64,000 nt of DNA from Candidatus Wolfebacteria bacterium GW2011_GWB1_47_1 (GTDB lineage: Bacteria > Patescibacteriota > Minisyncoccia > UBA6257 > UBA9933), in NCBI GenBank assembly GCA_001029635.1, contig CP011209.1:747969-811968 (forward strand), in the 5' to 3' direction. The first letter of the stretch is position 1; each line of letters opens with the position of its first letter. Of the stretch, positions 18,263 to 58,153 are shown piece by piece. The notes under the pieces were generated by a model. That model was given only the letters and a program-made list of their open reading frames with translations, was not told where the DNA came from and searched no databases. A program made the position numbers and the translations under genes.

Positions 18263-19618
18263 TCACATTATTGCGCTTTTAATATGCGCTGGAATATCTG
18301 CTTTAGTAAGCAAAACCTGCTCCCCGGTCTCCATGTTCTTTACGGCGAATTCGCCCGAGGCGATCTCGTCCTCTCCTACCAATATCACAAACGGGATTCC
18401 CAATTTGTTTGCGTAGGCAAGCTTGTTCTTCATCTTCACGTCTTCGAAATATACTTCTGCCGCTATCCCCGCTTCGCGCAGGGTCGTTGCAATCTCCAAT
18501 GGTATCGCCATATCGGCGACCAACGGAACCACCAACGCCTTTGTCGGCGTTGCCGCGCCCAATTCGATAAGCCCTATGTCTTTTAACTGAGAGAATAGTC
18601 GCGTCAATCCGATCGAAATACCAACGCCTGGCAATTTTCGCTTGGTGTATTTTTCTGCAAGGTTGTCGTATCGCCCTCCGGAACAGATCGATCCCAATTC
18701 TGAATGTTCGCGCAGTATCGTTTCGTACACCGTGCCGGTGTAGTAATCCAGTCCGCGTGCGATGGTCAGGTCTATTGCATAGCAATCGGGCGGTACGCCA
18801 AGTACCTTCAAATAGTGCGTTACTTCCTCCAGCTCTTTTATGCCGGTTTGGAATAGCTCATTTTCTATGCAAAGATTTCGTAGCGCGTTCAATACATCCT
18901 CAGGAGTACCCTTGATATCTGTGAAGGTAAAGATCTCTCTGATGGTGTTATCTGGTACTCCTAGCTCGACTAGTATGCCATGCACTTCGTTTTGGCCTAT
19001 CTTCTCGAGCTTGTCTATCGTTTGTATTACGCCTACGGACATATTGCCCGTTTCCAATGATTCCAACAATCCTCCTATAAGCTTTCTATTGCTGATCCGG
19101 ATCACAAACGCGCCGATATTGAGCTTGCTAAATACGTCATAGATTACGCTCGGAATCTCGGCATCATTCATAAGGCTCAACGATCCATCGCCAATAATAT
19201 CGATATCTGCCTGATAGAATTCTCGGTAGCGCCCTTTTTGCGATCGCTCGCCCCGATACACCTTTGCAATATGACTTCTGCGAAACGGAAACACGAGATC
19301 GTTCACGTGTTCGCTCACATATCGCGCCAACGGCACCGTCAGATCAAAACGCAATGCGAGTTCGTTGTCTCCTTTTGTGAATTGATAGATCTGCTTTTCG
19401 GTCTCTCCTCCCGCCTTTGCTAGCAGCACCTCCGCACGCTCTATGACCGGCGTATCAAGCGGAGCGAACCCATAGCGTTGATATACTTCTGCGATCGTGT
19501 TTTTTATGCGATCAAACACGATCTGCTCGGCTGGGAGCAGTTCCATAAAACCAGGTAGTACTCGGGTTGGGATCTTCTCATCCATTTTTTTTACTTCACT
19601 CATATCTTGCTGGGTCAT
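18263..19618 (-). CDS. hisS: histidyl-tRNA synthetase
   Basis: Class II aaRS motifs and HisRS signature DLTVPLARY; 451 aa. Confidence 0.9.
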   Translation of the reverse strand: MTQQDMSEVKKMDEKIPTRVLPGFMELLPAEQIVFDRIKNTIAEVYQRYGFAPLDTPVIERAEVLLAKAGGETEKQIYQFTKGDNELALRFDLTVPLARYVSEHVNDLVFPFRRSHIAKVYRGERSQKGRYREFYQADIDIIGDGSLSLMNDAEIPSVIYDVFSKLNIGAFVIRISNRKLIGGLLESLETGNMSVGVIQTIDKLEKIGQNEVHGILVELGVPDNTIREIFTFTDIKGTPEDVLNALRNLCIENELFQTGIKELEEVTHYLKVLGVPPDCYAIDLTIARGLDYYTGTVYETILREHSELGSICSGGRYDNLAEKYTKRKLPGVGISIGLTRLFSQLKDIGLIELGAATPTKALVVPLVADMAIPLEIATTLREAGIAAEVYFEDVKMKNKLAYANKLGIPFVILVGEDEIASGEFAVKNMETGEQVLLTKADIPAHIKSAIM

Positions 19619-19655
19619 ATATTTCCCAAAACACGGGCAGAACCCGTGCTTTGCA

Positions 19656-20126
19656 TTATTTTATACCGTCCTTTCCTCCGTGCGTATGCGGAGTGTGTAC
19701 GACCGAGTTACTCTGCTCGGATTGCATCGTCCCGAACTTTTTCTCCAGTCGCTCTAATCGGCGGTCGAGCGTCTTAAGCATTCCCTCTAGCTTCCATTGC
19801 ATCTGAACACGGCTTATCGATTGGAATCTAATCTCTTCCTCAGTTTCCTCATCTATACGCTTTTCTTCGTTAATACCACTAATAATAATCTCTTCTCCAA
19901 CAAAGAACGAAACAAAGAGGCCAGTTGCCAAGAGGATCACCGTCCCTATGGCGATCGATGCACCGCTACTCATGTGATATTCGTCCGCGAGCATCCAGAT
20001 GCCGCGCCAGAGCAAAATAATGCCAATGCTTCCAATCATGGCGTAGAGTACCGGATGGCGTGCCAATATTGAGCGCACCTCGTCTTCCTTTTTATCAAAA
20101 AATCGTGTGATGTTTTTGAACTTCAT
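19656..20126 (-). CDS. membrane protein with coiled-coil C-terminus (start at MKFKNITRFF)
   Basis: ORF 19656..20318 trimmed to an internal ATG. The longer form would overlap alaS. Confidence 0.5.
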   Translation of the reverse strand: MKFKNITRFFDKKEDEVRSILARHPVLYAMIGSIGIILLWRGIWMLADEYHMSSGASIAIGTVILLATGLFVSFFVGEEIIISGINEEKRIDEETEEEIRFQSISRVQMQWKLEGMLKTLDRRLERLEKKFGTMQSEQSNSVVHTPHTHGGKDGIK

Positions 20127-20138
20127 AATACTATTATA

Positions 20139-20190
20139 TCGCCTTCGGCGAGCAATTGTAATGGATTCCCGCCTACGCGGGGATGACAAT
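20139..20190. repeat. dual-hairpin intergenic motif, copy 1 (gccttcggc hairpin plus tggattcccgcctacgcgggg-atgacaat)
   Basis: Shares sequence and compensatory stem changes with copies at 22026 and 33565. Confidence 0.45.
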
Positions 20191-20209
20191 ACAACGAGAT
20201 ACACGGATT

Positions 20210-22009
20210 TTAACCAATCGTGGCGCGGATACGTCGAACGCCCGCAGAAACCGCCTCCTCTTTCGTTATCTTGAACGAGCCGATCTCTCCCGTGTACTCC
20301 ACGTGTGGGCCTCCGCAAAATTCGCGACTTACAACTCCACCGCTCGCTTCAGAGCCGATCGAGTAAACCTTCACAACCGAAGGATATTTATGCTTAAAGA
20401 ACGCAACCGCTCCTAGCTGTTCTGCCTCTTCCTTAGGCATCTCCTGGAAGTAGACCGGAAGATTTTCGTTGATCTTATCATTGACCAGATTTTCGATGGT
20501 CTGCAGCTCTTCCGAGGTTAGCTTACGGTCGAATGAGAAGTCAAAACGCAATCGCTCGGGATTAATATCCGACCCCATCTGATGCACTTCTTCGCCAAAC
20601 TCGTGGCGCAATGCCCAGTTGAGCAAATGCGTTGTCGTGTGATATCGGACAACCTGCTTTGCTTCTTCTTCATTGCCCGCCTTCAATTCTCCCGTATCAA
20701 GCACGAGCCCATGCCCTCCGAACTTATTACCCGCACCCGCGCGAGATATTTCCTGATGCTGCTCGATCTTCTTCTGAAATCCTGCTTCGTCCAGGGTGAA
20801 ACCCTTTGCTTCGACGAATTCCTTCAAAAGCTCCATTGGAAATCCATACGAGGAGAATAAATTGAATGCCTGCTCTCCTGTCACATGCTTCTCTTCCCGA
20901 TTCTGCTCGAAGATCTTTTCCATCTCCTTCAATCCGCGCGCAACCGCCTCCTGAAACTTTGATTTTTCCGTTTCAAATATACCAATGATTCGATCCGTCT
21001 CATTGATTTCCGAATAGATGTCTCCGAACAATTCCTTGATGACCGGCATCATTTCTTCGAACAAGTTTGCATGCACGTCGTACTTTACCTGGTATGCCAT
21101 AACACGACGCAACAAGCGGCGCAACACATACCCCGCTTCCTTGTTTGCCGGCACTACGCCATCGGCGATCAGGAATGTTGACGCGCGCAAGTGATCAGCA
21201 AATATACGTTTTACAGAGCCCTCCACATGCGGCGCCAATTCTTCGATCTTCGCCATGATCGGCCTAAAGATCTCCGACTCGAACACATTATCAACACCTT
21301 CCAGCATTACCGAAAGACGCTCAAATCCCATACCCGTGTCGATTCCCGGACGTTCTGCCTTGTTATACACACCGCTACGATCCTTGTAAAATTCATTAAA
21401 CACAATGTTCCACACCTCTACGTCATCAACATAGATCTCAGTACATGGACCACAGGGACCCTCTTCGCCCGTCGGCCCCCAGAAATTGTCTTCGCGCGGA
21501 CCCTTGCGGATCTTATCCTCTGGCAAATGCAACTCATCCTTCCAAATATTGTACGCCTCTTGATCAAACGGCGTTTCTGCGTCGCCTCCGAACACCGTCA
21601 CATAGATGCGGTCCGGATTAATACCTAGCACCTCGGTCATAAACTGGTATCCAAAGTGAATTGCGGCGCGCTTGAAATAACCTTCTTTTCCGTCGTCCTC
21701 CGGCTCATCAGAACCTACCGGACCAAACGAAAAGTTCCCCATCATCTCAAACATGGTCAAGTGGGTCTTGTCACCTACCTCTTCAATATCGCTCGTACGA
21801 AAACACTTCTGGATCGTCGCTGTGCGCTGGGATCCAAAATCCGCCAGGGCATCGAGTTCTCCCGTGTAATACTTCTTAAACTGCTGCATGCCTGCGGTCG
21901 TCAATAACACCGACGGATCGTCGGGGATCAACGATGACGATGGAACGCGCACGTGTCCTTTGCTATGAAAATAGTTAAAAAAATGTTTTCGTAGGTCTTT
22001 TGATTGCAT
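20210..22009 (-). CDS. alaS: alanyl-tRNA synthetase, short form lacking the C-terminal domain
   Basis: N-terminal catalytic core and editing HxxxH region (HTTTHLLNWALRHEFGEEVHQ); 599 aa versus the typical ~870. Confidence 0.85.
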   Translation of the reverse strand: MQSKDLRKHFFNYFHSKGHVRVPSSSLIPDDPSVLLTTAGMQQFKKYYTGELDALADFGSQRTATIQKCFRTSDIEEVGDKTHLTMFEMMGNFSFGPVGSDEPEDDGKEGYFKRAAIHFGYQFMTEVLGINPDRIYVTVFGGDAETPFDQEAYNIWKDELHLPEDKIRKGPREDNFWGPTGEEGPCGPCTEIYVDDVEVWNIVFNEFYKDRSGVYNKAERPGIDTGMGFERLSVMLEGVDNVFESEIFRPIMAKIEELAPHVEGSVKRIFADHLRASTFLIADGVVPANKEAGYVLRRLLRRVMAYQVKYDVHANLFEEMMPVIKELFGDIYSEINETDRIIGIFETEKSKFQEAVARGLKEMEKIFEQNREEKHVTGEQAFNLFSSYGFPMELLKEFVEAKGFTLDEAGFQKKIEQHQEISRAGAGNKFGGHGLVLDTGELKAGNEEEAKQVVRYHTTTHLLNWALRHEFGEEVHQMGSDINPERLRFDFSFDRKLTSEELQTIENLVNDKINENLPVYFQEMPKEEAEQLGAVAFFKHKYPSVVKVYSIGSEASGGVVSREFCGGPHVEYTGEIGSFKITKEEAVSAGVRRIRATIG

Positions 22010-22025
22010 GATTTCTTAAATTATA

Positions 22026-22081
22026 AGCCGCCTTCGGCGGAAGGTTGAACTGGATCCCGGCTCGGAGGCCGGGATGACAAT
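22026..22081. repeat. dual-hairpin intergenic motif, copy 2
   Basis: agccgccttcggcgg ... tggatcccggctcggaggccgggatgacaat. Confidence 0.45.
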
Positions 22082-22120
22082 CCTCCTCGTTTTTCGTGTT
22101 TCCTTTTCCGTTTTCGCTCT

Positions 22121-23491
22121 TTAGTACCCGCGAAGTTCTTCTGCTTTCGAGTGCCCTTTGATCTTTTCTATCGCCTTTGCTTCGATTTGACGAATGCGCT
22201 CGCGCGTAACGCCGAACTTTTTTCCAACCTCTTCGAGTGTGTGAGTCACACCATCCTCGAGTCCAAATCGGAGCTTTAAAATCTCCTGCTCGCGCGGGGC
22301 GAGATCGATCAATATTTCACGAATCTTTTCCTTCAAGAGCGCGAGTTCCGCAGATTGCGTCGGGGACAGATTCTTATCGTCCTTAATAAGGTCTGACAAA
22401 GTTGCTTCGTCGCTATCCTCCATCAACGGTGCTTCGAGCGAAATAACCTCCTGGGAGATCTTCTGAATGTTATAGATCTTGTCGACGGTCGTTCCCATCT
22501 CAATAGCAATTTCCTCGGCAAGCGCTTCGCGGCCCAATTCTTGCATAAGCCTTCGCTTTACCTGTGTATACTTTGAGATGTTCTCGATCATATGAACCGG
22601 GATGCGAACTGTGCGCGACTGGTCGGCCAATGCGCGCGTGATCGCCTGGCGAATCCACCATGTCGCGTAGGTAGAGAACTTAAATCCCTTACGATAGTCA
22701 AACTTGTCGACCGCCTTTGAAAGACCGATGTTTCCTTCCTGAATAAGGTCCAGAATACCCATCTGCGTTGTGCGATGCGCATAGCGCTTTGCAATGGACA
22801 CCACGAGACGCAAGTTTGCCTGAATAAGGCGCTGCCGTGCGTTTTCGTCTCCATCTTCCGATCGCTTTGCGAGATCCTTTTCTTCTGCCGAATTCAACAA
22901 TGCATATCGTCCTATTTCCTTTAGATACATCTGCACGGAATCTGGCATTTCTTCCATTCTCCCTTTGCCAACTGACTCCAATTCCTTCTGAGTCGGCTCA
23001 TCTTCCTTTGGCAATTCGATCAGTGCGGCCGTTTCGACCACTTTGATGTTATTTTTTTCTAAGTAGTCGTACAGCTCTTCGAGTACCGATATGTCATCTT
23101 CCACATGCGGGAAGTAATACAAAATTTCCGTGTCGGTTACAAATCCCTTCGCGCGTCCACGATGGACGAGTTCCTCCATCTGTTCCTTGTCAAAGGCAAC
23201 CTTCTTTTCCGCCTCTTCGGCGGTTAGCTTCTTTTTCGGAATCTTTTTGGGCACCGGCTTTGCGCCTCGTGCCGGCAACTTAGGCTTTTTCACTTCTGCC
23301 TTTTTAATAGCCACCTTCTTTACCGCTCCTTTCTTCGGCGCGGCCTTTTTTACTACGGTTTTCTTTACTATCGGCTTTTTTACTGCCGTCTTTTGTGCTG
23401 CTTTTTTCGGTGCAGCTTTCCCCTTTGCCGCTTGTTGAGCGGGTTTTTTTGCAACCTTATTCAATTTTGACTTTTCGACTTTTTTAACCAT
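22121..23491 (-). CDS. rpoD: RNA polymerase sigma-70 factor RpoD with Lys/Ala/Pro-rich N-terminal extension
   Basis: Regions 2-4 present ([34 protein letters not shown]). The first ~95 aa are a histone-H1-like AKK repeat. Confidence 0.9.
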
Positions 23492-23502
23492 AGTTGACAG
23501 TA

Positions 23503-25263
23503 TTACTTTTCATTCTGCAATAGTTTTGACACCTCGTCAAATAGCTTCAAATAGTGTTCCTCCTTCTCTTTATCCCTTTTGTGCTCCGCCTGACGGATAG
23601 CGCGCGTGATAATCTCTAACTTTTCCTTCAGTGCTTTGTTTCGCAATTGAAACATCAATTCCTTAAACTCCTTTATTGTCTTTTCTGGATCAACCTCTCC
23701 TACCTCCATGCCGGCGCGCAATGTAAATGTATGCAATTCGTCCAATAGTCTTAGATCGCTTACTACCGACTTATCCATAGCGGTATCATAAATCCTCCTG
23801 TATTGCCTTGGTAGATATTTCGCGTACTCCTCAAGCTCTTTGAGTAGATCCTCCCGCACGAGTGCCATCTTGAGCACACGATCAGCGATGAGATCGATGC
23901 GCATCTTTTCTTCTTCCACTTCCTGCAGCGTCACTTCTTCCTGCTTGGGCCGCACTGCTAACGGGACCGCCACTTCAGCGTGCTCCATGTCTTCCTTCAA
24001 AATATGCTCACTCACATTTACCTTTTGCGCGAGCTGATTGAGCCAATGTTCCCGTTCCACCGCGCTTAGGAGTGCCTTTATCTTTTCCAATACGATATGT
24101 AAATTCTTTCTAAATTTCGCCGGATCGTTCTTGAATGATTCCCCGTGCGATAGATACCGCTCGAAATAGAACTCCATTGCTTCCTTTGCCTTCTTCGCAT
24201 ATTCGACCATGATCCCCGGTTTTGCCTTGATCGCATCTGCCGGATCCTTATATTCCCCCAATGACAAGATCTTCACGTTGAAGTCGAGGCTCTTAGCAAG
24301 GTCGATACTTCGTTCCGCTGCCTTTTGCCCCGCTTCATCATTATCAAACGAAAACATCACATTCTCTGTTTGCTTGCGAAGCGTCTTGAGGTGATCGGCC
24401 GTCAATGCCGTTCCCGAGGTTGCGACGGCATTTTTGAGTCCATCCTGCACGCACATCAGTACATCCATTTGCCCTTCTACGAGTAATGCGAATTGCATTT
24501 CTCTGATATGGTTCTTTGCTTTATTGTACCCATACAGTACTCGTGATTTGTTAAAGATAGGGGTTTCAGGACTGTTGATATATTTCCCCGAATCTCCTTT
24601 ATCAAACTCGGGCAAGATTCGCGCTGTAAACCCCACCACCTTCCCCGTATTGTTTGCGATCGGAAACATGATACGCCCACGGAACCGGTCGACATACGTC
24701 CCGCGCTCTGTGCGGAAGTTGATCCCGGCGCGCTCGATGTCGGGCGCCTTAAATCCCTTATTTGTTAAATAGATCGTCGCAGCATCCCATGATTGCGGAG
24801 CAAACCCGAGTTCGAACTCCTTAACCGTATCCTCGGTCAACCCGCGCGTTTTTATGTATTCAGCTACCTTTGGATTACGGTTTAGTTCCAGTTTATAAAA
24901 CTCCTTTACTGCGTCATTGATGTCGTACAAGATGCCGAATTGCTTTTGATCTTCCGGACTTAGCTTCTTCAACTCCACCCCTGCCTTTTCGGCAAGTATC
25001 TTGAGCGCTTCATAAAATTCGATATTCTCGTACTTCATCAGGAATGAAAATACATCTCCTCCCTCATTACATGAACCAAAGCAATGCCATGTCTGCCGAT
25101 CCGCAGAAATCATAAAAGAAGGCGTCTTTTCGCCGTGGAATGGACATCGCGCCTTGAAGTTGCGCCCCGCAGGTTTCACCTCTATATACGAGCCGATGAC
25201 CTGCACAATGTCGATCTTCTCTTTTATCTCTTCGATGGGATTATCTACGGACATAGCGATCAT
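23503..25263 (-). CDS. dnaG: DNA primase
   Basis: [11 protein letters not shown]...CFGC zinc finger; TOPRIM region; 586 aa. Confidence 0.85.
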
Positions 25264-25323
25264 TCATTAATGGCAGAAATTCCAACGACGCATGTGTTGG
25301 AATTTCTGTTTGTTTCATTTCGT

Positions 25324-26811
25324 TTACTCTTTTTCCTTCATCGGCGGGAATACCACCGTTTCGCGGATCGACTTGTTCATCAAGAACGAGAACAAGCGTT
25401 CACTTAGGCCGAAGCCAACCGCCGGAGGCATGCCGTATTCCATCGCCTCGACGTAATCTTCGTCGATCATCTGTGCTTCTTCATCGCCTGCTTCGCGGAG
25501 CTTCATCTGCTCCTCAAACCGCTGTCGCTGGTCGAGCGGATCGTTCAATTCCGAAAAACCATTACCCAACTCCGATCGGCATGCGATCGGCTGGAAGCGC
25601 AATACGCGCTTCGGGTCACTCGGGTCCTTCTTCGCCAACGGCGACACTTCTAGCGGATGCCCCGTAAGGAAGCATGGCTGAATGAGCCGCTGTCGGACCG
25701 TCTTTTTGTAGATCGTATCTATCATGCGGCCTTTGCCATCTGCCGCTTCATACGGTATGCCAAGCTCGTTCGCTTTTTGTTTCAATATTTCCACAGAAAC
25801 CTCTCCCGACAGATCAATACCCGTTTCCTTTTTGAATTCTTCGAAATAATCGATTCGTGGCCAGTTACCGGACCAATCGATTAATTCGCCATCGTATTCG
25901 GTCTTCATCTCCTCGCCGATGACGTTCTTTACGATCTCCTTATACATGCGTTCTACCGCATCCATACCCTTTGTCATGTCTCCATACGCCCAATAAAACT
26001 CCATAGCGATATAGTCTTGCAAGTGCTCCGCATCGATACCTTCGTTGCGAAATACCTTTCCAATCTCGTAAATCTTTTCGAATCCACCAACGAGCATCTT
26101 CTTCAATGGTAATTCGAGCGATATGCGCAAATAAAAATCACGATCAAGCGCGTTGTGGTGTGTGATGAACGGTCGCGCATCAGCTCCTCCTGGGATCGCT
26201 TCAAGCACCGCGGTATCTACCTCAAAAAATCCTTCGTTATTCAAAAAGGTTCGGATCGTGTTCCAGAACAGTGTCTTTTTCTTGAACAGCTCCCGCGTCT
26301 CCGGGTTCATCATCAGGTCCAAATACCGCTTGCGCAACAGCGCCTCGGTATCCTTGAGCCCGTAGAATTCGCTCGGAATCGGCAAAATCGCCTTGGATAA
26401 CAGCTTCCATGCATCTGCCTGGAGCGTCTTTTCTCCTGTCTTGGTGATGAATAACGTTCCCGTCGCCTGGATAAAGTCACCCATGTCTATGTTATTTGCG
26501 AACAGGTCGAACCGCTCATCGCCGACGATATCGCGCTTTACCAATATCTGAATCTTTCCGGATTCATCCTCAATATGCACAAATGCCAACGCACCCATGA
26601 CACGCATAGACTTAATGCGTCCGGCGAGCGTCATCGGCTTTTCTGTAAGTTCATCAAAATGTTCCACTACATAGTGGTTTGCAAAATCCTTCGTGCTTTC
26701 CTGCGGATACGCCTCCTCTCCGGCGGCGACCAGGCGTTGCATTTTTTCCAGTTTTGCTTCGCGAATGTTCTCTAACATGATAGTTCTATTATAGCACAGA
26801 GCAGAGGACAT
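25324..26811 (-). CDS. lysS: lysyl-tRNA synthetase (class II)
   Basis: OB anticodon-binding domain plus class II motifs FRNEG, GGFEKIYEIGK; start may be at the internal MLENIREAK. Confidence 0.9.
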   Translation of the reverse strand: MSSALCYNRTIMLENIREAKLEKMQRLVAAGEEAYPQESTKDFANHYVVEHFDELTEKPMTLAGRIKSMRVMGALAFVHIEDESGKIQILVKRDIVGDERFDLFANNIDMGDFIQATGTLFITKTGEKTLQADAWKLLSKAILPIPSEFYGLKDTEALLRKRYLDLMMNPETRELFKKKTLFWNTIRTFLNNEGFFEVDTAVLEAIPGGADARPFITHHNALDRDFYLRISLELPLKKMLVGGFEKIYEIGKVFRNEGIDAEHLQDYIAMEFYWAYGDMTKGMDAVERMYKEIVKNVIGEEMKTEYDGELIDWSGNWPRIDYFEEFKKETGIDLSGEVSVEILKQKANELGIPYEAADGKGRMIDTIYKKTVRQRLIQPCFLTGHPLEVSPLAKKDPSDPKRVLRFQPIACRSELGNGFSELNDPLDQRQRFEEQMKLREAGDEEAQMIDEDYVEAMEYGMPPAVGFGLSERLFSFLMNKSIRETVVFPPMKEKE

Positions 26812-26829
26812 ATTGCCTCTGCTTTATAC

Positions 26830-27285
26830 TTATTCTATTCCCAAAATTTTATACTTTGCAATACCCTTTGGCGTTTCTACCTCAACTATATCCCCTTCCT
26901 TCTTACCCATGAATGCGGCGCCAAGTGGTGATTCGTTGGAGATCAAGCGCTTTTCCGGGTTTGCTTCGTTGGAGCCGACGATCGTATATTCGAATCCCTT
27001 CTTGTCCTTTTCAACCTTCACGGTCGAACCAAGGTCTATTGTCTTTTTTCCATGCGATTTCTTAATAATAACCGCATTGCGGATGATATTCTCCAATTCG
27101 ATGATGTGCGCTTCGAGCTTTGCCTGTGCTTCTTTTGCTTCGGAATACTCAGCGTTTTCTGACAGATCGCCAAATTCCTTCGCTCGCTTCAATCGCTCCG
27201 CAATATCATTGCGACCTTCCTTTTTTTCCTGCTCCAGTTCGGTTTTTAATTCTTCAAACCGTTCCTTAGTTATATGAAATTCCAT
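26830..27285 (-). CDS. greA: transcription elongation factor GreA
   Basis: MEFHITKERFEELKTELE...DLSENAEY; 151 aa. Confidence 0.85.
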   Translation of the reverse strand: MEFHITKERFEELKTELEQEKKEGRNDIAERLKRAKEFGDLSENAEYSEAKEAQAKLEAHIIELENIIRNAVIIKKSHGKKTIDLGSTVKVEKDKKGFEYTIVGSNEANPEKRLISNESPLGAAFMGKKEGDIVEVETPKGIAKYKILGIE

Positions 27286-27435
27286 ATTTTATGCAAAACG
27301 TATGAATTTGGCGTCCTACTGCGCTACCTCCTCGTTTACTCCCGCAAAGGAGTTTAACTCCATCTTAGTCACAAGCCTCGTCGATACCTTGTATTCCATC
27401 TAAATTCGTACGTTTTGTTCTTTTTATTTTATTTT

Positions 27436-28188
27436 TTACTTATTCTTACTTTTTAGTTTTTTCGACTTGATCTTATATGTATTCGTCCACAGCCACCATC
27501 GAACCTTGCAAACCTCCCACAGCACTTCGATGTACGATGATAATTTTATTCTCGAATTAGGATCGTTGATGAATATCGCTGGCGTCTCCTTGATTTTATA
27601 TCCAAGCCGCTTCGCTAATGACAATATCTCCACGTCAAACCCCCAATGTTTCACTTTGATAATCGGGAATATCTCATTCGCAGCACGCTCACTAAAGATC
27701 TTGAACGGGCACTGCGTATCCTTCAATCCGGGCAATACCATCAGCTGGATAAACCAATTCCCCATCTTCCCCGGTAATTTACGAAACAGTGGCTGATCCC
27801 GTTTTGCCCCTTCGATATCTCTCGATCCGATCACAATATCATAGCCTTTGTCCGTCAGTTTTAACGCTTCAATAACCTGGTCGATCGAGATCGAGTTATC
27901 TGCATCCACAAATGCGCGGAATTCCCCTTTTGCCTCCTCCATACCCTTCTGTACCGCCGCACCTTTTCCCTTGATTGCGCATTCAATCAGACGAAGCTCG
28001 TTCCATAGATGCTCAAATCGGAGCACAATATCGACTGTGTTATCCTTTGACCCATTATCGACTACAATCACTTCGTACGAAAAATCAACCGTCTCCAGAT
28101 GTCGCTTCATGTCGACCAAGGTCAACGGAAGTCGCTTGGCTTCATTATATGCCGGAATGATTATCGAAAGTCGCGGTTTTTTATCCAT
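27436..28188 (-). CDS. family 2 glycosyltransferase (polyprenyl-phosphate sugar transferase-like)
   Basis: LSIIIPAYNE...VVDNGSKD...DAD GT-A signature. Confidence 0.75.
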   Translation of the reverse strand: MDKKPRLSIIIPAYNEAKRLPLTLVDMKRHLETVDFSYEVIVVDNGSKDNTVDIVLRFEHLWNELRLIECAIKGKGAAVQKGMEEAKGEFRAFVDADNSISIDQVIEALKLTDKGYDIVIGSRDIEGAKRDQPLFRKLPGKMGNWFIQLMVLPGLKDTQCPFKIFSERAANEIFPIIKVKHWGFDVEILSLAKRLGYKIKETPAIFINDPNSRIKLSSYIEVLWEVCKVRWWLWTNTYKIKSKKLKSKNK

Positions 28189-28366: not shown

Positions 28367-28759
28367 TTATGCGTCCTTGAATATCTGCGTGATTTTAAAC
28401 ACTCGGCACCCGGGATGTCGACATGCGACACGCGATACGCTCGCGTAATACCCCCGCGACCACCAATAATCCTTGATCGGACCGTATCGACGGACCCCAA
28501 TCGCCCGATCCTCCCAATCTGGAAGATGTAGCTCGGGGGTTCGATGCGCATACCCTAGTGCACACATTAATTGAAGCCCGAGATACCGAACCGCCATCTT
28601 TCCCCAGTGCCAGGCAAATATACCCACCAACCAGAGCAATACGCTACATACGACCGTCATAACCACATAGTAGCAGGGGTTTCGCGTACCTCCCATTGAC
28701 CACCAGGTCATAGCAACGACTAGTACGGCTGCGAATCCATACGACATCTTTCGTATCAT
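28367..28759 (-). CDS. hypothetical membrane protein (130 aa)
   Basis: ORF with AGGAGG 8 nt upstream of the ATG; Trp/hydrophobic-rich; GC-rich region where several shadow ORFs overlap. Confidence 0.4.
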   Translation of the reverse strand: MIRKMSYGFAAVLVVAMTWWSMGGTRNPCYYVVMTVVCSVLLWLVGIFAWHWGKMAVRYLGLQLMCALGYAHRTPELHLPDWEDRAIGVRRYGPIKDYWWSRGYYASVSRVACRHPGCRVFKITQIFKDA

Positions 28760-28928
28760 CAGATCGCCTCCTTGGTCTCCTGAACGGTAATTATTTCATC
28801 CGCCCTTTCAATCGTCCAATTAGCCAAACTGCTCCGTCGCGGAGCGATAATAGTAGCGCTGCACTCACGATAAGGACCAAACAAAACAACAACATCCCCA
28901 TAGCTTCCCTCCCCATGCAGTCACCCTC

Positions 28929-29123
28929 CTATCCATCTTTTTGTGATGGCTCTTTGCGCAATAAGATCACTGCGATGATCCCCATTGCGATTATTACTCC
29001 CAGGCCGATACCCAGAAACCCCGTAATGATTGAATTATCCGGCGGATAGTTTTGGTTAGCCTTACTTATTGCTTGTAACATCCCCAGTAATCCTTCTTCG
29101 TCCATATCCCACCCCTTATGCAA
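28929..29123 (-). CDS. small membrane peptide (64 aa)
   Basis: Single TM helix; ends ...KDG like the next small peptide. Confidence 0.3.
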   Translation of the reverse strand: MHKGWDMDEEGLLGMLQAISKANQNYPPDNSIITGFLGIGLGVIIAMGIIAVILLRKEPSQKDG

Positions 29124-29232
29124 TTTGTAATTATTACTCTATTTAGTTAACCCCGAAACGCATAGGATGTCCACCCCCTCTAATAAGTTAGGCCCGCATC
29201 CGCTTCGCTCGCCATTCTGCCAGTACAACACC

Positions 29233-29263
29233 TAGTTAAAAAAGAGGCGCATTACTGCGCCTC
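29233..29263 (-). terminator. intrinsic terminator (cctagttaaaaaa + gaggcgcattactgcgcctc)
   Basis: On the minus strand a hairpin is followed by a T-run; same cctagttaaaaaa flank as the 31904 terminator. Confidence 0.4.
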
Positions 29264-29516
29264 ATCCATCCTTCTTCCCTCCTCCTTTCGAAGACTTCGG
29301 AAGCAATGCCATGATGATCCCCACTCCCACGAGGATCATCCCCACAACCTGCGCCCACGGCCACAGCGCGTTGAACGCACGGAGCATGAGCCAGTTGAAG
29401 GCTTCGGGGGAGATGATCGCGAGCAGCACCAGCAAACCTGCCAGCGTGCCCAAGAGTCGCCGCGGCGTCCCCATTATAATGCACAGATACGGATTCATTC
29501 TGCCTCCTTTGCCCAC
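29262..29516 (-). CDS. small membrane peptide (84 aa)
   Basis: Two hydrophobic helices; ends GGGKKDG. Confidence 0.3.
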   Translation of the reverse strand: MGKGGRMNPYLCIIMGTPRRLLGTLAGLLVLLAIISPEAFNWLMLRAFNALWPWAQVVGMILVGVGIIMALLPKSSKGGGKKDG

Positions 29517-44659: not shown

Positions 44660-44670
44660 AAATGACTTGT

Positions 44671-45062: not shown

Positions 45063-45101
45063 GTTAGTTGATTGGTTGAATTTCGTTAGTTGATTTTCAG
45101 A

Positions 45102-45938: not shown

Positions 45939-45946
45939 ACAAATTA

Positions 45947-46040: not shown

Positions 46041-46413
46041 AGGAAGGCATGATGTCGAGCTTCTGCCCTGGCTTCAAAGTGACAATCGCCTTCTTGGTGG
46101 TCGTCTTCTTGCCGGCAACGCCGCGGAACTTCTGTCGCTCTCCCCGGATAGTGACCGTGTTCACGGAAATCGGGTCGACGTTGTAGATGCTCTTGATCGC
46201 CTTTGCAATCTCGGACTTGTTCGTGTGCTTATCCACCACAAATACGTATTGTCCTGCAATGCTCATGTGATACGCTTTTTCGGTGATCAACGGGCGCTTT
46301 ATTATAAACTCATTCGCCGGGCTTCGCAAAGCTCCTTTTGATGAGCCCTTCGGCGTGCTCAAGGCGCCACTCTTCGCTCCCTCTTCAGTTTTTGATTTCT
46401 TTGCAATGGCCAT
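46039..46413 (-). CDS. rplW: 50S ribosomal protein L23 (N-terminal extension)
   Basis: IIKRPLITEKAYHM...YVFVVDKHTNKSEIAKAI. Confidence 0.85.
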   Translation of the reverse strand: MAIAKKSKTEEGAKSGALSTPKGSSKGALRSPANEFIIKRPLITEKAYHMSIAGQYVFVVDKHTNKSEIAKAIKSIYNVDPISVNTVTIRGERQKFRGVAGKKTTTKKAIVTLKPGQKLDIMPS

Positions 46414-46416
46414 AGT

Positions 46417-47046: not shown

Positions 47047-47098
47047 AAATGTGTGTATCGATATGTATACAGAGCTTACTTGCTTCGATGCCTCGGCT

Positions 47099-47698
47099 TT
47101 AGCCGCGCACCTCAATCAGCGTTCCCCGCATTCCCGGAACCGGTCCGTGGACCATCAAAAGATTATTTTCCTTGTCGATCGCAGCAACCTTAAGGTTCTT
47201 GATCGAGAATCGTTCCTGGCCCATGTGTCCAGCCATCTTTCGTCCCGGCACAACGCGTTGCGTTGCAGTCGATCCAATCGATCCCGGTGCACGATGTCGA
47301 TTCTTCTGGCCGTGCGTCTTTGGTCCGCCTCCGAATCCATGTCGCTTTACAACGCCCTGGAATCCACGTCCCTTCGACAAACCGCTAATCTTTATTACAT
47401 CGCCTTCTGCGAACTGTGCAACATCGATGACATCACCTACTTTAAGATCGCTCCCTTCAACCCGGAATTCCTTCAAGGTCTTGAAGTTTCCCAGATCCTT
47501 CAAATGGCCAGCGAGCGGCTTGTTTGCCTTTTTGTCGGATTTATCAAATCCAACCTGCACCGCTTCGTATCCATCCTTTTCGGTTCCGCGAATCTGCGTT
47601 ACCGTTACCGGACCAGCTTGCAGTACCGTTACCGGGATCTGCCTGTCGCCGCTCCAAATCTGAGTCATTTTTACTTTTTTACCGAGTATGAATTTCAT
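47099..47698 (-). CDS. rplC: 50S ribosomal protein L3
   Basis: MKFILGKKVKMTQIW...GKGFQGVVKRHGFGGG. Confidence 0.9.
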   Translation of the reverse strand: MKFILGKKVKMTQIWSGDRQIPVTVLQAGPVTVTQIRGTEKDGYEAVQVGFDKSDKKANKPLAGHLKDLGNFKTLKEFRVEGSDLKVGDVIDVAQFAEGDVIKISGLSKGRGFQGVVKRHGFGGGPKTHGQKNRHRAPGSIGSTATQRVVPGRKMAGHMGQERFSIKNLKVAAIDKENNLLMVHGPVPGMRGTLIEVRG

Positions 47699-47717
47699 AG
47701 TGTTTTTATCGCAAAGA

Positions 47718-47756
47718 AAAAACGGGCGGATTTAGTAATCCACCCGTCCCTTTGGT
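47718..47756 (-). promoter_or_regulatory. terminator-like hairpin with U-run in the 5' leader of the r-protein operon, 20 nt upstream of the rplC ATG (putative attenuator)
   Basis: Minus-strand RNA reads acgggtggatt-acta-aatccgcccgt followed by ttttttc. Confidence 0.4.
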
Positions 47757-47847
47757 GTTTCAACTAAATCTTCGTAAAGATTATTTCGCTCACTTTTCTT
47801 TTGTTGCAATCGATACCAACATCACTGCTGATATAATTTGACTCTGT

Positions 47848-47878
47848 GAGAATAACAGATAGTTGACTGGGTGTCAAC
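47848..47878 (-). promoter_or_regulatory. candidate promoter TTGACA-17-TATTCT for the r-protein operon
   Basis: Read on the minus strand; no other -35/-10 pair with good spacing was seen in the leader. Confidence 0.3.
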
Positions 47879-48166: not shown

Positions 48167-48667
48167 TTAGAACGTCGCGGATGCGACAATCTCGCGGCAT
48201 TTTGCGATAATCGCCGCCTTATCGGCGTCCGTCAGTCCGGTACGCATTACAGGGTAATGCAAAAACAATCTGCCGAATTCCGGTCCTCGAGTACGTATTG
48301 CTCCAATAAGGTGCCCTTCCTTTAGGATGCCGGCGTAGCCGGTGCCTTCCCCATTGAATACCAATGGGGATTCAACTGGCGGATCCTGAACCATAGGAAA
48401 CTGTTTCAGGGTCATAGTCGCTTCACATGCCACCACCAGTACCTCGACATCGCTCTTCCGCTTAACTTCATCGATTTTATCGGCTATTTTGCGCAACTCC
48501 GCGGCAGTATACCTGCGTCCGACCAACGGGCCATACTGACATAGGCCATATTGAGATTGAAATGATACTTCTCCGCTATAATCGCCGATAGTCCCCAAAA
48601 ACTCAGTAGATCCTCTTCTTACATCGGTTACCGCATTCCGATCATCGAATCCTATTTCTGAATCCAT
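48167..48667 (-). CDS. hypothetical protein (166 aa), paralog of 48761..49171; possibly GlcG/DUF336-like
   Basis: AAGGAGG SD; own TTGACA promoter; shares YTAAELRKIADKIDE / YSSAELREIADKVDE and C-terminal A(I/V)(A/K)KC(R/A)E with its neighbour. Confidence 0.5.
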   Translation of the reverse strand: MDSEIGFDDRNAVTDVRRGSTEFLGTIGDYSGEVSFQSQYGLCQYGPLVGRRYTAAELRKIADKIDEVKRKSDVEVLVVACEATMTLKQFPMVQDPPVESPLVFNGEGTGYAGILKEGHLIGAIRTRGPEFGRLFLHYPVMRTGLTDADKAAIIAKCREIVASATF

Positions 48668-48760
48668 ACCGCCTCCTTGATCTTCTTATAAATTTACACT
48701 CAATCTGCTGTTCGTATAATGCGTTTTAACCGGTTAGCTGTCAATTATCATAATGTGCTG

Positions 48761-49171
48761 CTATTTCCTTGCGAGCTCGGCGCATTTGACTGCGATCTCC
48801 ATCATTTCTTCTGGAGAAACCGAGCGTCTATTGGAATTTTGCCACGACTTCCATCTCCCGGGCCATCTCCCGTCTATATTTATCGTTCCGAGAGCCCCTT
48901 TTCTGTTGTGGACAATTAGTGCGGCCCCGACTGGACCATCTACTTGAATAAACACTAACGCCGTTTTTTTGCTCTCCCCCTCCTGTAATTCATCCACTTT
49001 GTCGGCGATCTCCCTCAACTCCGCAGAAGAATAGCAGTGCCCATTCTGAGCTCCGTGCAAACACAGAAACGCTCTTTTCCCACCCAACGTACTGACCGCC
49101 CCTAAGCGCCAGCTGCCCCTCATTACGTTTTGGCAAACGCCATGCTCCGTAAAGCTAAGCTTTTTGGACAT
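48761..49171 (-). CDS. hypothetical protein (136 aa), paralog of 48167..48667
   Basis: GGGAGG SD; TTGACA-17-TATAAA upstream. Confidence 0.5.
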   Translation of the reverse strand: MSKKLSFTEHGVCQNVMRGSWRLGAVSTLGGKRAFLCLHGAQNGHCYSSAELREIADKVDELQEGESKKTALVFIQVDGPVGAALIVHNRKGALGTINIDGRWPGRWKSWQNSNRRSVSPEEMMEIAVKCAELARK

Positions 49172-49277
49172 ATCTCAACCTCCCTGGATTGTGATCAAAC
49201 TGCTGCTCAATTTATACAATTCAAATATAAATATGTCAATTTTGCTTGAGGTAAAACAAAGGCCCCGATTGAGGCCC

Positions 49278-49559
49278 TTACTCGTCTTTCTCGAAGAATT
49301 CTTTCCAGGGGTCGGGTTCTTCTATCTGCCCCTCCAGGGCTATACACTTTTCTTCGTAGAGCCGCTCGAGTTCTTCGCTCTTTTGCGCCAGCATGTATAA
49401 TTCGCTTGAAGAAAACGTCCGAGCTCTTGTTCCCTCGAAATATCGTTGAAATACCCTGAATTGCCCCTCCTCATTGAATATGCCACATAGGATACCTCCC
49501 TTTGACTCGCATACGTCCACAAGCACTTTTCCATCCTTTTGCTCTATGAACTTTATCAT
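49278..49559 (-). CDS. hypothetical protein (93 aa)
   Basis: AGGAGG SD; TTGACA-17-TATTAC promoter upstream. Confidence 0.45.
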   Translation of the reverse strand: MIKFIEQKDGKVLVDVCESKGGILCGIFNEEGQFRVFQRYFEGTRARTFSSSELYMLAQKSEELERLYEEKCIALEGQIEEPDPWKEFFEKDE

Positions 49560-49632
49560 TATAGAAGACCTCCTTAAGAATCCTTCTCATGGACTACTTC
49601 AGTAATACCCACCTTCCATTCTGTTGTCAATC

Positions 49633-49655
49633 CGTCAAAAAAGGCCCTGCATGTG
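49633..49655 (-). terminator. intrinsic terminator ggccccgcacatgcagggcc + tttttt (minus-strand read)
   Basis: Immediately after the stop of 49672..50349. Confidence 0.5.
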
Positions 49656-49671
49656 CGGGGCCTGTACTGGC

Positions 49672-50349
49672 TTACATTTCGCCACGGTCGGCAAAGATCG
49701 CGCAATCACCAACCGCTTGCGGTTGCGGTTCCTTTGCGTGACTGTTGCTCGGCTGTTCCGCTTCGCCGAAGTCGGCCAGCTTGAGGAGCTGCAGAAGCAT
49801 CTCGTCCTCCAGGTTATTTACACCCCTTACTCTCTGCTCGGTTACGGGGCGGTATCCAACCTTTACTTCCTCGCCCTTATAGTGAGCACTGTTGTATGTA
49901 TAGATACCTGGAGAATATGTTTCCCATTGCCCTTTGCCGCCGGCGATCGCCAAATGATCGTGTCCATTCCTAACGATTTCAGCATGACCGAACGGCGTAT
50001 CTTCGGAAAACGTCTGTCGCGCCAAAGCCTCCAGTCTTCCGAATGCAGGACCAAATCTTACCTCCCGTTCGGCACATTTTTTTACGAATTCCTCTGCTTT
50101 TGCGCTGATCTCCTTCCACTGTTCGAGCGTGAACGTATTAGAATAGGACATGATTCTCGAGGAATCATCTTCGATCTTCGTTCCGGAAATGGTAATCCTG
50201 CCACTCGCTCGTATGTGACCGATATGCTCCTCGCCAAGAAGCATATCAACCGCGAGCTCCGTGAAATAGCTCACGCCCTTGCGGATACTCATAAATTGCC
50301 GCATCCCTTCTTCAAATCTCAGTGTCGGGCTCTTCTTTTCCTCGGTCAT
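49672..50349 (-). CDS. hypothetical protein (225 aa)
   Basis: AAGGAG SD 7 nt upstream; ORF track. Confidence 0.5.
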   Translation of the reverse strand: MTEEKKSPTLRFEEGMRQFMSIRKGVSYFTELAVDMLLGEEHIGHIRASGRITISGTKIEDDSSRIMSYSNTFTLEQWKEISAKAEEFVKKCAEREVRFGPAFGRLEALARQTFSEDTPFGHAEIVRNGHDHLAIAGGKGQWETYSPGIYTYNSAHYKGEEVKVGYRPVTEQRVRGVNNLEDEMLLQLLKLADFGEAEQPSNSHAKEPQPQAVGDCAIFADRGEM

Positions 50350-50427
50350 TACGGGTCTCCTTATTGCCTGCCTTTTAGTTGTTTAGATCTGCCCAAACGG
50401 TAGCTGTTCCCCCTATATATGTCAAAT

Positions 50428-54896: not shown

Positions 54897-56625
<1,729 letters not shown>

Positions 56626-56628
56626 TAT

Positions 56629-56916
56629 TTATCCAAGTATCGCAAAAATGTTATCTTCGTCACCGACCATATATTTCCTTCCCTCGATTTCGACTTCGGA
56701 CAATCCGTATTTTTTATACAACACGGTATCTCCGACCTTGACCGACATCGGGATGCGCTCACCCTTCTCATTCATCTTGCCTTCGCCTACCGCGATCACC
56801 GTGCCGGTGGTCGGCTTTGACTCAGCCGACTCTGGGATATAGATCCCGCTTTTCGTCATCGATTCGGCTTCGATCGGGTCAATGAAGATATGGTTTGCTA
56901 ATGGTTTAATTTGCAT
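56629..56916 (-). CDS. groES: co-chaperonin GroES
   Basis: Start at MQIKPLANHIFIDP; 95 aa. Confidence 0.9.
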   Translation of the reverse strand: MQIKPLANHIFIDPIEAESMTKSGIYIPESAESKPTTGTVIAVGEGKMNEKGERIPMSVKVGDTVLYKKYGLSEVEIEGRKYMVGDEDNIFAILG

Positions 56917-56952
56917 TGCATGCATGAGGTACGAGGTAAGCATTACGAGGTA
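56917..56952. repeat. GAGGTAMG repeat block immediately upstream of the groES ATG
   Basis: catgaggtacgaggtaagcattacgaggtaagcgg. Confidence 0.45.
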
Positions 56953-57057
56953 AGCGGGTTCACAATTACCCTCCCTTATTCATACTTCTTAGTTCGTACT
57001 CCTATTATTTTCTAGAGTTTTCTTTAAAAATGACCTTTTGCAAAGCCATGTATCACT

Positions 57058-57406: not shown

Positions 57407-57469
57407 GTCGAACCCCCTTTATTCGTTTGTAAATGATGCATTATCTTTTTCTGGTATACAGGAATTTTT

Positions 57470-57510
57470 GTTGTGTGTCAAAAGCCCCTTGTTTGGGGGC
57501 TTTTGACACA
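57470..57510. terminator. 17-bp perfect inverted repeat gtgtgtcaaaagccccc / gggggcttttgacacac with loop ttgttt
   Basis: Direct read; lies 8 nt from direct repeat 1. Confidence 0.35.
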
Positions 57511-57518
57511 CTAATATA

Positions 57519-57540
57519 TTATTCTCCGCTTTGTGGTTTA
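57519..57540. repeat. 22-bp direct repeat 1 (ttattctccgctttgtggttta)
   Basis: Identical to 58196..58217 (positions within 1 nt), which encodes the last 6 codons and the stop of rmuC. Confidence 0.7.
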
Positions 57541-57616
57541 CTCTTCTTGCGTTTTGTTGCATTTACATTAATACTATAGGCAGATTTTTTATTTCACTAT
57601 ATGGGAGGAGAATTCC

Positions 57617-58153
57617 ATGAACGGATGCAGATGCCTTAGACACAGGAAATACGGACCTCGAACTGAAACCGCAGAGGACAGGCAACTACGGGCCGATATG
57701 CACGAGATCGCGCGCTGGCAAACAGAGGAGGCCGCGCACAAAGAACTCGTCGCAACTTTCAATGATCCGAGAGTGAGCCCAAGCGATAAGGAGCGCTTAT
57801 TTCACCTCAGGGATTGCGTTCCGAGCATGCTGCGCTTCAGTCGCAAGATGTTCCCCTTTCTCGAACAAGACTCGGACATTGAGTATGCTAAAAGCCTGCG
57901 AAGCTGTCTTGACCTGCCAGGCAAAAGGAGACACCTCAATCGACAATTCCGCTTCGAGAAAGACGACCTGGCGATCGAAACACACCGAGGAGAGGGTCTC
58001 TTTGGGGAAATTGGGCGCTTCCCCCTTACCTCGCTCCAGCTTGAGCTTGAGATCCGGGACAATCCCTGCAAAGATGGTTGCGTGAAAAAGGGTCTTATCG
58101 TTCACGTGCACTACAGGCCTGCCGTGGATTCTCTCGACAGTTCCACCCTCTGA
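57617..58153 (+). CDS. hypothetical Cys-containing protein (178 aa) on a DR-bounded cassette
   Basis: GGGAGG SD 7 nt upstream; followed by a GCCCCGC-type terminator; flanked by 22-bp direct repeats. Confidence 0.55.
   Translation: MNGCRCLRHRKYGPRTETAEDRQLRADMHEIARWQTEEAAHKELVATFNDPRVSPSDKERLFHLRDCVPSMLRFSRKMFPFLEQDSDIEYAKSLRSCLDLPGKRRHLNRQFRFEKDDLAIETHRGEGLFGEIGRFPLTSLQLELEIRDNPCKDGCVKKGLIVHVHYRPAVDSLDSSTL

Follow-up and report, generated by a model that had tools for sequence, protein, structure and literature searches.

Genes with and without Shine-Dalgarno sequences side by side in a chromosome segment of Candidatus Wolfebacteria

Background

Why should adjacent genes of one bacterial chromosome have two sharply different kinds of translation start, one with a strong Shine-Dalgarno (SD) sequence and the other with none? 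The question is raised by a 64,000-nucleotide (nt) stretch of contig CP011209.1 (the window), part of the chromosome of a groundwater Candidatus Wolfebacteria (Parcubacteria, candidate phyla radiation, CPR). A sequence-only reading had listed housekeeping genes that lack an SD and 15 genes, higher in G+C content (GC), that carry one. It ascribed the difference either to a layer of acquired genes retaining donor-type SDs in a host that initiates mostly without SD, or to a chimeric contig. A third explanation appears to us the probable one: the stretch is correctly assembled and has native dual-mode initiation, with two kinds of translation start region.

The ribosomal protein L3 is 96% identical to that of Candidatus Wolfebacteria bacterium RIFOXYD12_FULL_48_21, the 79 relatives ranked next come throughout from Parcubacteria/Paceibacteria metagenome-assembled genomes (MAGs), and two orphan proteins carry the NCBI name Wolfebacteria GW2011_GWE1_48_7. 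The first 18 kb of the window form an island with a GC of 35-40%. The other 46 kb, with GC of about 48%, contain housekeeping genes, a 19-gene ribosomal protein (r-protein) operon, thyA, a DHFR fusion gene and many small open reading frames (ORFs) without a family.

Data and methods

Genes were called with a self-trained codon model, and starts were corrected using homology and the calls made in other assemblies. The core region, window positions 18.2-64 kb, yielded 61 scored genes; the total sample amounts to about 90 kb of the genome. The SD score is the duplex energy between the 20 nt upstream of the start and 5'-ACCUCCUUA-3'. Three other Wolfebacteria species, denoted L004, L104 and L106, were compared. 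The first has about 80% nucleotide identity to the window; in L104 groEL and L3 are 93% identical, and in L106 the r-proteins are 86-98% and secY 96% identical.

Results and discussion

Two classes of genes

Strong canonical SDs resembling AAGGAGGT precede 22 of the 61 core-region genes (-7.7 to -13.0 kcal/mol), and the remaining 39 are SD-less (-5.8 kcal/mol or weaker); in four genes an SD-preceded start was preferred to a longer ORF, which slightly biases the assignment toward the SD class. The distribution is bimodal, with no gene between -7.7 and -5.8. The paired stretch lies 2-8 nt from the start codon in all SD genes, with no spacer outside this range. All 15 SD genes named in the sequence-only reading were recovered within these limits of energy and spacing, and seven more were added. 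Most genes have GGAGG as SD core and a handful have GGGGG; the latter is found in several of the seven added genes and pairs with CCUCC through G-U.

The list of SD-less genes stood in full, including the 19 r-protein genes, hisS, alaS, rpoD, dnaG and groES/EL. The weak motif noted upstream of secY is GAAGGGC (spacer 11, -4.5). In the island, where only some genes had been checked, all 20 are SD-less. The SD genes are indeed GC-richer (median 0.537 vs 0.485, Mann-Whitney p = 1e-5), but the distributions overlap. All three codon positions contribute to the excess, the third one least (GC3 0.60 vs 0.555, p = 0.03). The two-class pattern extends beyond position 58153, to at least 63223. In the 17 kb beyond the window end, hyp203, DUF218, hyp186 and hyp74 are SD-led, and PBP, GalT, the VTT-domain (DedA-like) gene, leuS, NUDIX and TIM are SD-less.

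One could argue that the motifs are not ribosome-binding sites (RBS) at all, but chance features of spurious ORFs or sites for another factor: many of the ORFs concerned have no database family, and one ORF call is ambiguous. However, an energy of -8.5 or stronger was observed at 20 of 58 annotated starts, compared to 2.5% of 1513 other ATGs of the same region (binomial p = 7e-18). Depending on the energy cut-off, real starts exceed the background about 10- to 50-fold, and the spacing is fixed. The same motifs precede genes of defined enzymes, namely thyA, DHFR, the deaminase-domain protein and the histidine kinase, and both ORF lengths and motifs are conserved across species. We consider this explanation very improbable.

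Contig integrity

The identical gene order, including all GC transitions and the island junction, was found by exact-protein look-ups in at least five assemblies: a 633-kb contig of JGI 3300025309, NCBI contigs of 526 and 78 kb (GCA_003453235.1, GCA_001000945.1), and ENA contigs of 107, 171 and 63 kb. Moreover, SD and SD-less genes are interleaved singly, hyp113 lying between adk and map and hyp207 between rplO and secY, and such interleaving is also present in other species. This refutes the suggestion of a chimera, in which misassembly would have joined two organisms differing in RBS usage and GC. The composition shifts and the existence of two RBS classes are all that speaks for it. Against it, every GC transition is reproduced in JGI, NCBI and ENA contigs, and the classes alternate gene by gene, here and in other species; we regard a chimera as next to impossible. 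The contig of one ENA assembly breaks precisely at the junction of the island with tRNA-Asn.

The assemblies differ in the starts called for rpsE, the AAA kinase, adk and rplD. An internal CGGGAGGTA followed by ATG within rpsE (39263, minus strand) is conserved, including L106 7365-7793, and at this site the caller of one assembly placed the rpsE start 58 codons late. This mis-start is SD-based start calling misfiring in an SD-poor genome. In such genomes, a gene caller with a single RBS model will set wrong starts for one of the two classes.

Conservation in related species

L104 and L106, and to some extent L004, have counterparts of most SD-class genes in the same places. In the sister species the stretch between groEL and rplC holds thyA, the DHFR fusion, the deaminase-domain gene, the nucleotidyltransferase and the AAA kinase; the hyp225 family is located upstream of rplC, and hyp180, hyp151 and hyp113 are found among secY, adk and map. 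The counterparts examined in the three species were those of thyA, folA, the deaminase, the nucleotidyltransferase, AAA184, the hyp225 family, hyp207, hyp180, hyp151 and hyp113. A strong SD-like motif, with an energy of about -7.6 to -13.1, precedes every one of them. The 45-nt flanks of these conserved SDs are only about 50-75% alignable. On the other side, rplC, groEL, secY, map and the r-protein genes are SD-less in all sister species examined. The class of a gene is thus conserved over four species, at an interspecies protein identity of 35-78% for the SD class vs 84-98% for the core.

Individual cases illustrate this. In L106, the orthologue of hyp113 (58% identity) has its own SD, both homologues of hyp151 (37-45%) are SD-led, and the hyp180 orthologue (38%) is preceded by AGAGGAGGA. 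Relatives of hyp225 upstream of rplC in L004 and L104 (35-40% identity) are SD-led, the AAA184 orthologue of L104 (65%) has an SD, and the SDs of thyA, folA, the deaminase and the nucleotidyltransferase are kept in L104 and L004. At the position of the 94-aa gene (57122), which is called in two assemblies, L104 has an SD-led gene of 101 aa. The gene hyp207 (GC 0.62, GC3 0.80) lies on the opposite strand between rplO and secY, and has three distant homologues among 5.8 billion proteins, one of them in a syntenic Wolfebacteria contig. As hyp207 is absent in L004, a recent insertion was considered, but this was dropped, since L106 has an orthologue at the same position with 48% identity, the same SD and GC3 of 0.82.

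The closest named homologues of thyA (57-78% identity) are from Parcubacteria (Sung-, Colwell-, Jorgensen-, Azam-, Ryan- and Nealsonbacteria, Minisyncoccia), with the exception of one MAG labelled Anaplasmataceae. The module thyA-folA-(147-aa ORF)-deaminase-nucleotidyltransferase is conserved across those Parcubacteria lineages. The 327-aa folA product consists of DHFR and a C-terminal domain with weak HIT/DcpS-like Pfam matches; in other Parcubacteria this domain stands alone, as an ORF of about 147 aa next to or downstream of folA/thyA (43-48% identity), and the fusion is common to the three Wolfebacteria species that carry folA. Outside the genus, no gene of the module has an SD in any of five other Parcubacteria lineages. 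Hence the SDs of the module are derived in the Wolfebacteria genus and do not come from a typical donor. On the other hand, thyA is closer to other Parcubacteria (66-78% identity) than to L004 (55%), and on these identities its exchange within the CPR gene pool is likely. Such an exchange leaves the SDs of thyA unexplained.

These observations bear on the proposed layer of horizontally acquired genes, which would retain the RBS and GC of their donors in a host not itself reliant on SD pairing. The part concerning the host is supported, as r-protein genes are SD-less both here and in 72 related Parcubacteria loci. In favour of acquisition are the higher GC, the lack of some SD genes at the L004 locus, the exchange suggested for thyA, and the fact that SD-class proteins are mostly orphans. 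However, the SDs are intact in positional orthologues at 35-78% protein identity, where an unused motif should have decayed amid the diverged flanks. The named relatives of thyA are, with the one exception, Parcubacteria, and as five of their lineages are SD-less throughout the module, a typical donor supplies no SD. The only evident mobile element of the window, with recombinases and a tRNA-Asn junction (1-18080), is itself SD-less and low in GC. Finally, the GC excess of SD genes is strongest at codon positions 1 and 2 and thus points equally to protein composition. No mobility genes or tRNA integration sites were found beside SD genes in the window. The higher GC, the much faster evolution and the absence of a few genes from L004 would suit a variable or accessory role of the SD genes. 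Acquisition with donor SDs seems unlikely, although it keeps a real chance.

Start regions of SD-less genes

Using homology-anchored starts, we found 0-1 of 18 r-protein genes with an SD of -8 or stronger in each of the 72 Parcubacteria loci. The SD-less class is probably ancestral to a large part of Parcubacteria. The 997 pooled r-protein starts have A at -3 in 59% and at -6 in 64% of cases, only 3-13% G from -12 to -1, and a pyrimidine at -1 in 86%. In the window, A at -6 is observed in 21 of 37 SD-less genes (class 1) vs 2 of 21 SD-led genes (class 2), and A at -3 in 19 of 37 vs 6 of 21. Start regions of class 1 are less folded (median minimum free energy -4.5 vs -7.4 kcal/mol, p = 0.002), have a higher unpaired probability, and are lower in GC at codons 2-11 (0.33 vs 0.43, p = 4e-4). 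In Flavobacterium johnsoniae, A-3 and A-6 are measured positive determinants of the start (Baez et al. 2019, PMC6847099).

Among genes other than r-protein genes in 75 related loci, 6.7% had an SD at -9 vs 4.9% for the internal-ATG null, a small excess, and no link between SD and GC was seen among them. It seems that either the rich SD class is specific to this genus, or the 75 loci are dominated by core genes.

Several class 1 genes have a -10 box ending 6-10 nt before the ATG: hyp156, alaS, adk, the ABC ATPase and DUF5654, and in the flank NUDIX and a PG-binding gene. The box is TATAAT (6-10 nt) in hyp156 and alaS. In adk the extended -10 TGGTATACT ends 6 nt before the ATG at 34619, and in DUF5654 TGGTATACT ends 7 nt before the ATG. 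In the ABC ATPase gene, TGcTATACT, the TG-extended part of a promoter-like site at 59328-59356, ends 9 nt before the ATG at 59366. Strong -10 boxes at this distance occur in class 1 only; in class 2 the best -10 is 24-58 nt upstream. With the box this close to the ATG, some first-in-operon class 1 genes may be leaderless or near-leaderless, judging by these promoter-like hexamers. In our literature search no paper on SD usage or leaderless initiation in Wolfebacteria was found.

The leaders of several SD-less genes are made up of tandem repeats that are G-poor or of short period. The identical 21-mer GTAGGTTGTAGGTCGTAGGTT stands before rpsH (40865-40885) and rplB (45953-45973), ATAACC(A/G) repeats before rplV (44730-44769), ACCTCAT-type repeats before groEL (56547-56571), and an ACGAT(AT) tandem repeat before the cation-efflux gene (30845-30865), all on the minus strand. 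In L004 a distinct 30-nt element is repeated before rplC, rplD and rplB.

Dual-mode initiation

Native dual-mode initiation would operate as follows. Genes of class 1, about two thirds of the total (r-proteins, tRNA synthetases, rpoD, secY, groESL etc.), have no SD, and their starts would work through unstructured or leaderless initiation at G-poor, weakly folded regions with A at -3/-6. Class 2, about one third, comprises small lineage-specific proteins, the dTMP-synthesis module and the GAF kinase, with a strong SD near the ATG on a longer and more structured leader. These genes are resident in the genus, with a several-fold faster evolution than the core and a somewhat higher GC, and selection would maintain their SDs through a usable canonical anti-SD.

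Several points weigh against this explanation. The L004 locus lacks counterparts of hyp207, hyp166/136/93 and AAA184, and these absences together with the higher GC fit a partial horizontal origin. Several class 2 ORFs lack homologues beyond the genus. The ORF at 57617-58153 is annotated differently between assemblies, one calling it and two calling an ORF on the opposite strand. A generic promoter scan gave 13 sites, no enrichment over the 10.6 expected from shuffles. The sample covers about 90 kb of the genome. Last, Tsurumaki et al. 2022 (PMC9297842) detected the CCTCCT anti-SD motif in no more than 48% of the 16S genes of Parcubacteria, and the Wolfebacteria ribosome may likewise be without it.

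The anti-SD and a possible regulon

SDs conserved amid diverged flanks imply selection, and selection in turn implies a usable anti-SD. Both GGAGG and GGGGG pair with CCUCC, whereas GGAGG does not pair with CCCCC. Hence the ribosome would be expected, from the motifs, to have a usable canonical CCUCC tail. A 16S gene was sought as well. Adjacent 23S and 5S genes are located at 6607-9867 of locus L093, about 7-10 kb past window position 64000, but no 16S gene accompanies them, the 23S gene being preceded by about 840 nt of non-coding DNA; thus the rRNA operon is split in this genome. Regular-expression scans of all 107 loci for universal 16S blocks gave no match, the left flank of the window contains protein genes only, and a metagenome scan with the orphan protein adjacent to 5S yielded no relative.

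Internal GGAGG was tried as a proxy for anti-SD activity. Its occurrence within coding sequences equals the synonymous-shuffle expectation (ratio 1.03), neither depleted nor enriched, and the measure was set aside as uninformative. The strand asymmetry of GGAGG, 129 vs 28, is due to codon usage on the coding strand, and the local GGAGG cluster at 61044-61100 (minus strand) is due to about 19 glycine codons, the run in which the 69-aa gene at 61035 ends; this gene is called in several assemblies.

A different role of the SDs would be that of a translational regulon, in which access to the anti-SD is switched, by analogy with its bS21-dependent sequestration in Bacteroidia; SD-led genes would be translated in certain states only, and the SD-less core constitutively. 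The class 1 signature matches Bacteroidia, and a sensor kinase belongs to the SD class, as do many small membrane proteins or orphans. Flavobacterium ribosomes without bS21 gain SD use (PMC9976891), and bS21 is often missing in Parcubacteria (PMC9297842). However, F. johnsoniae has a single SD gene, rpsU (PMC13000453), which falls far short of the one third of genes here. We rate the regulon as improbable, with a slim chance. A broader proposal, that Wolfebacteria, from SD-less Parcubacteria ancestors, re-deployed SD initiation on fast-evolving genes, including the dTMP-synthesis module with its SD-less orthologues in other Parcubacteria, and that a switchable anti-SD would make of them a separate regulon, e.g. 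for host interaction, is a speculation with a small chance of being right.

Other features of the window

The features are listed in Table 1. The 20 island genes (within 1-18120) all have SD energies of -5.6 or weaker. The island adjoins tRNA-Asn (18081-18153), extends about 6 kb past the window start (L096 10632-16500), and also encodes a DUF87 ATPase.

To the SD-less set of the sequence-only reading we added rpsN (40958-41143), among the r-proteins, and the 156-aa gene. The best motif of lysS is AGAGGC, at -5.8; map has TACACT 8 nt before the ATG; and the secY leader "gggcagtactaattc" is kept in L004 and L106. The r-protein operon begins at rplC without rpsJ and has no uL30 between rpsE and rplO, and map is not followed by infA-rpmJ-rpsM-rpsK-rpsD-rpoA-rplQ. 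The proteins uL22 (204 aa) and uS5 (200 aa) have N-terminal extensions.

The rplC leader contains a strong terminator-like hairpin at 47717-47750, which ends 18 nt before the ATG. Positions 47717-47859 are 86% identical to L004, and the hairpin region is also seen in L104. An Rfam search of the leader gave no family above threshold. The leader may be an attenuator under r-protein control.

A sigma-70-like promoter with 12 of 12 matches is located upstream of groES at 57085-57058, which makes the groES leader about 105 nt long. At 56941-56975 (minus strand) there is GGGAGGG, then a 6-codon GTG ORF whose stop overlaps the groES ATG (TAATG). From this arrangement, groES may be coupled to an SD-led upstream ORF.

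Three genes of the membrane-peptide cluster, 130, 58 and 78 aa long, were called in other assemblies too. The tandem genes at 48167-50349 seem to represent a lineage-specific family in rapid diversification, consisting of either two paralogue pairs or one divergent family; hyp136 is a paralogue of hyp166. AAA184 matches Pfam AAA_17/18, and thyA and folA have GC of 0.56-0.57. Searches of PHROG, NCBIfam and Pfam gave no match for the hypothetical SD genes, including the 257-aa gene at 30930.

Table 1. Features of the window in order of position. Positions are window coordinates, energies are in kcal/mol, and "added" marks SD genes beyond the 15 of the sequence-only reading.
Feature	Position	Strand	SD	Energy	Remarks
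Integrative island, low GC (35-40%)	1..18080				20 genes, all SD-less
LOOT RNA motif in island	4776-4900	-
Large serine recombinases in island	6395-8044, 16585-18120				Pfam resolvase/recombinase labels
N6/N4 DNA methyltransferase in island	12414-14207				Pfam label N6_N4
SNF2 helicase in island	14204-16579				Pfam label
SD-less hisS, hyp156, alaS, rpoD, dnaG, lysS, greA, GT2 glycosyltransferase	18263..28188	-		+1.2 to -5.8	Pfam
Four SD-led small membrane-peptide genes	28367..29510	-		-8.5 to -12.0	Predicted transmembrane segments
SD-led gene	28367-28759	-	28766-28774
SD-led 36-aa ORF	28791-28901	-	28907-28916		Added
SD-led gene	28929-29105	-	29110-29119		Added
SD-led gene	29262-29498	-	29502-29510		Added
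SD-less cation-efflux gene	29828..30844	-		+0.3	Pfam
SD-led hypothetical, 257 aa	30930..31719 (start ATG 31703)	-	AAAGGAGGTG 31710-31719	-12.9	Spacer 6
SD-less map (methionine aminopeptidase)	32310..33071	-		-3.9	Spacer 12; Pfam
SD-led hyp113, 113 aa	33140..33498 (gene 33140-33481)	-	AAGGGAGGG 33490-33498	-11.8	Added
SD-less adk	33924..34619	-		-2.8	Pfam
SD-led hyp151, 151 aa	34701..35168	-	AAGGGAGGA 35160-35168	-11.3
SD-led hyp180, 180 aa	35353..35911 (start 35369)	+	AGAGGAGGG 35353-35361	-12.5
SD-less secY	36125..37387	-		-4.5	Pfam
SD-led hyp207, 207 aa	37611..38247 (start 37624)	+	CAGGAGGTG 37611-37619	-11.6
SD-less 19-gene r-protein operon, rplC to rplO	38342..47698	-		All -3.5 or weaker
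rplC leader	47699..47877	-			Promoter-like TTGACA-17-TATTCT at 47849-47877
Four tandem SD-led hypotheticals upstream of rplC	48167..50364	-		-9.3 to -12.8
SD-led gene	48167-48667	-	48671-48679
SD-led gene	48761-49171	-	49177-49186
SD-led gene	49278-49559	-	TTAAGGAGGTC 49567-49577
SD-led gene	49672-50349	-	50356-50364
SD-led P-loop kinase-like AAA184, 184 aa	50597..51166 (start ATG 51151)	-	GAAGGAGGTA 51157-51166	-13.0
SD-led thyA	51307-52134	+	51296-51303	-10.2	Pfam
SD-led folA, fused to C-terminal domain	52159-53142	+	52146-52153	-7.7	Pfam
SD-led dCMP-deaminase-domain gene	53202-54056	-	AAAGGGGGC 54061-54069	-10.7	Pfam; added
SD-led nucleotidyltransferase	54053-54601	-	CAAGGGGGTA 54604-54613	-11.8	Pfam; added
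SD-less groES/groEL	54897..56975	-		+0.9 and +0.4
SD-led hypothetical, 94 aa	57122..57420 (gene 57122-57406)	-	AAAGGGGGTT 57411-57420	-11.4	Added
SD-led hypothetical ORF, 178 aa	57602..58153 (start 57617)	+	TGGGAGGA 57602-57609	-10.2	Gene call uncertain
SD-less rmuC (-) and ABC transporter pair (+)	58197..60861	-/+			Pfam
SD-led 69-aa gene	61035..61257 (ORF 61035-61244)	-	AGAGGAGGC 61249-61257	-12.0
SD-less DUF5654 and DUF167 pair	61390..61931	-		-3.8 and -3.5	Pfam
SD-led GAF histidine kinase	62018..63223 (gene 62018-63211)	-	AGAGGAGGA 63215-63223	-12.0	Pfam and NCBIfam
SD-less PAP2 phosphatase gene	63327..63893	-		+2.0	Pfam label

Comparison with known systems

Abundant, conserved genes are the ones with strong SDs in model bacteria. 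The opposite polarity is seen here: the conserved core is without SD over a large CPR clade, and strong SDs are on the fastest-evolving lineage-specific genes. A start class tied to evolutionary rate, GC and lineage restriction, and conserved gene by gene, is apparently new for a CPR bacterium. It makes testable whether Parcubacteria reported to be without an anti-SD truly lack it, what role a retained anti-SD has, and how start codons are selected in unculturable CPR bacteria.

The closest analogues of a mixed genome are cyanobacteria and plastids, for which Scharff and colleagues reportedly described, in 2011 and 2017, a minority of SD-dependent genes, the others relying on unstructured starts. 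We know of no report linking the start class in these systems to evolutionary rate, GC or lineage restriction, all of which it tracks in the window.

Leaderless mRNAs are common in Actinobacteria, Deinococcus and archaea. The candidate class 1 starts with a -10 box 6-10 nt before the ATG resemble them, but form only a subset, and internal operon genes cannot be leaderless.

Genomic islands and ameliorated DNA share with the SD class an atypical GC and the absence of a few members from one sister species. Unlike them, the SD class is without mobility genes or tRNA junctions, is syntenic, and has its homologues within the superphylum, whereas the true island of the window (1-18080) belongs to the SD-less class.

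Bacteroidia, represented by F. johnsoniae (Baez et al. 2019, PMC6847099; Jha et al. 2021, PMC7797042; McNutt et al. 2023, PMC9976891), are similar in having core and r-protein genes without SD, and A-rich, G-poor, weakly structured starts with A favoured at -3/-6. There, strong SDs are essentially limited to one gene, rpsU (PMC13000453), and the anti-SD is sequestered. In contrast, Wolfebacteria has strong conserved SDs on about one third of the genes of the region, far from the near-absence of SDs in Bacteroidia. The phylum also differs, Wolfebacteria belonging to CPR.

The study of Tsurumaki et al. 2022 (PMC9297842) concerns the same superphylum. It implies that SD pairing is dispensable in many Parcubacteria, which fits the 72 SD-less loci, but it dealt with rRNA rather than mRNA start regions and gave no Wolfebacteria-specific result. 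The conserved SDs described here argue for a working anti-SD in Wolfebacteria.

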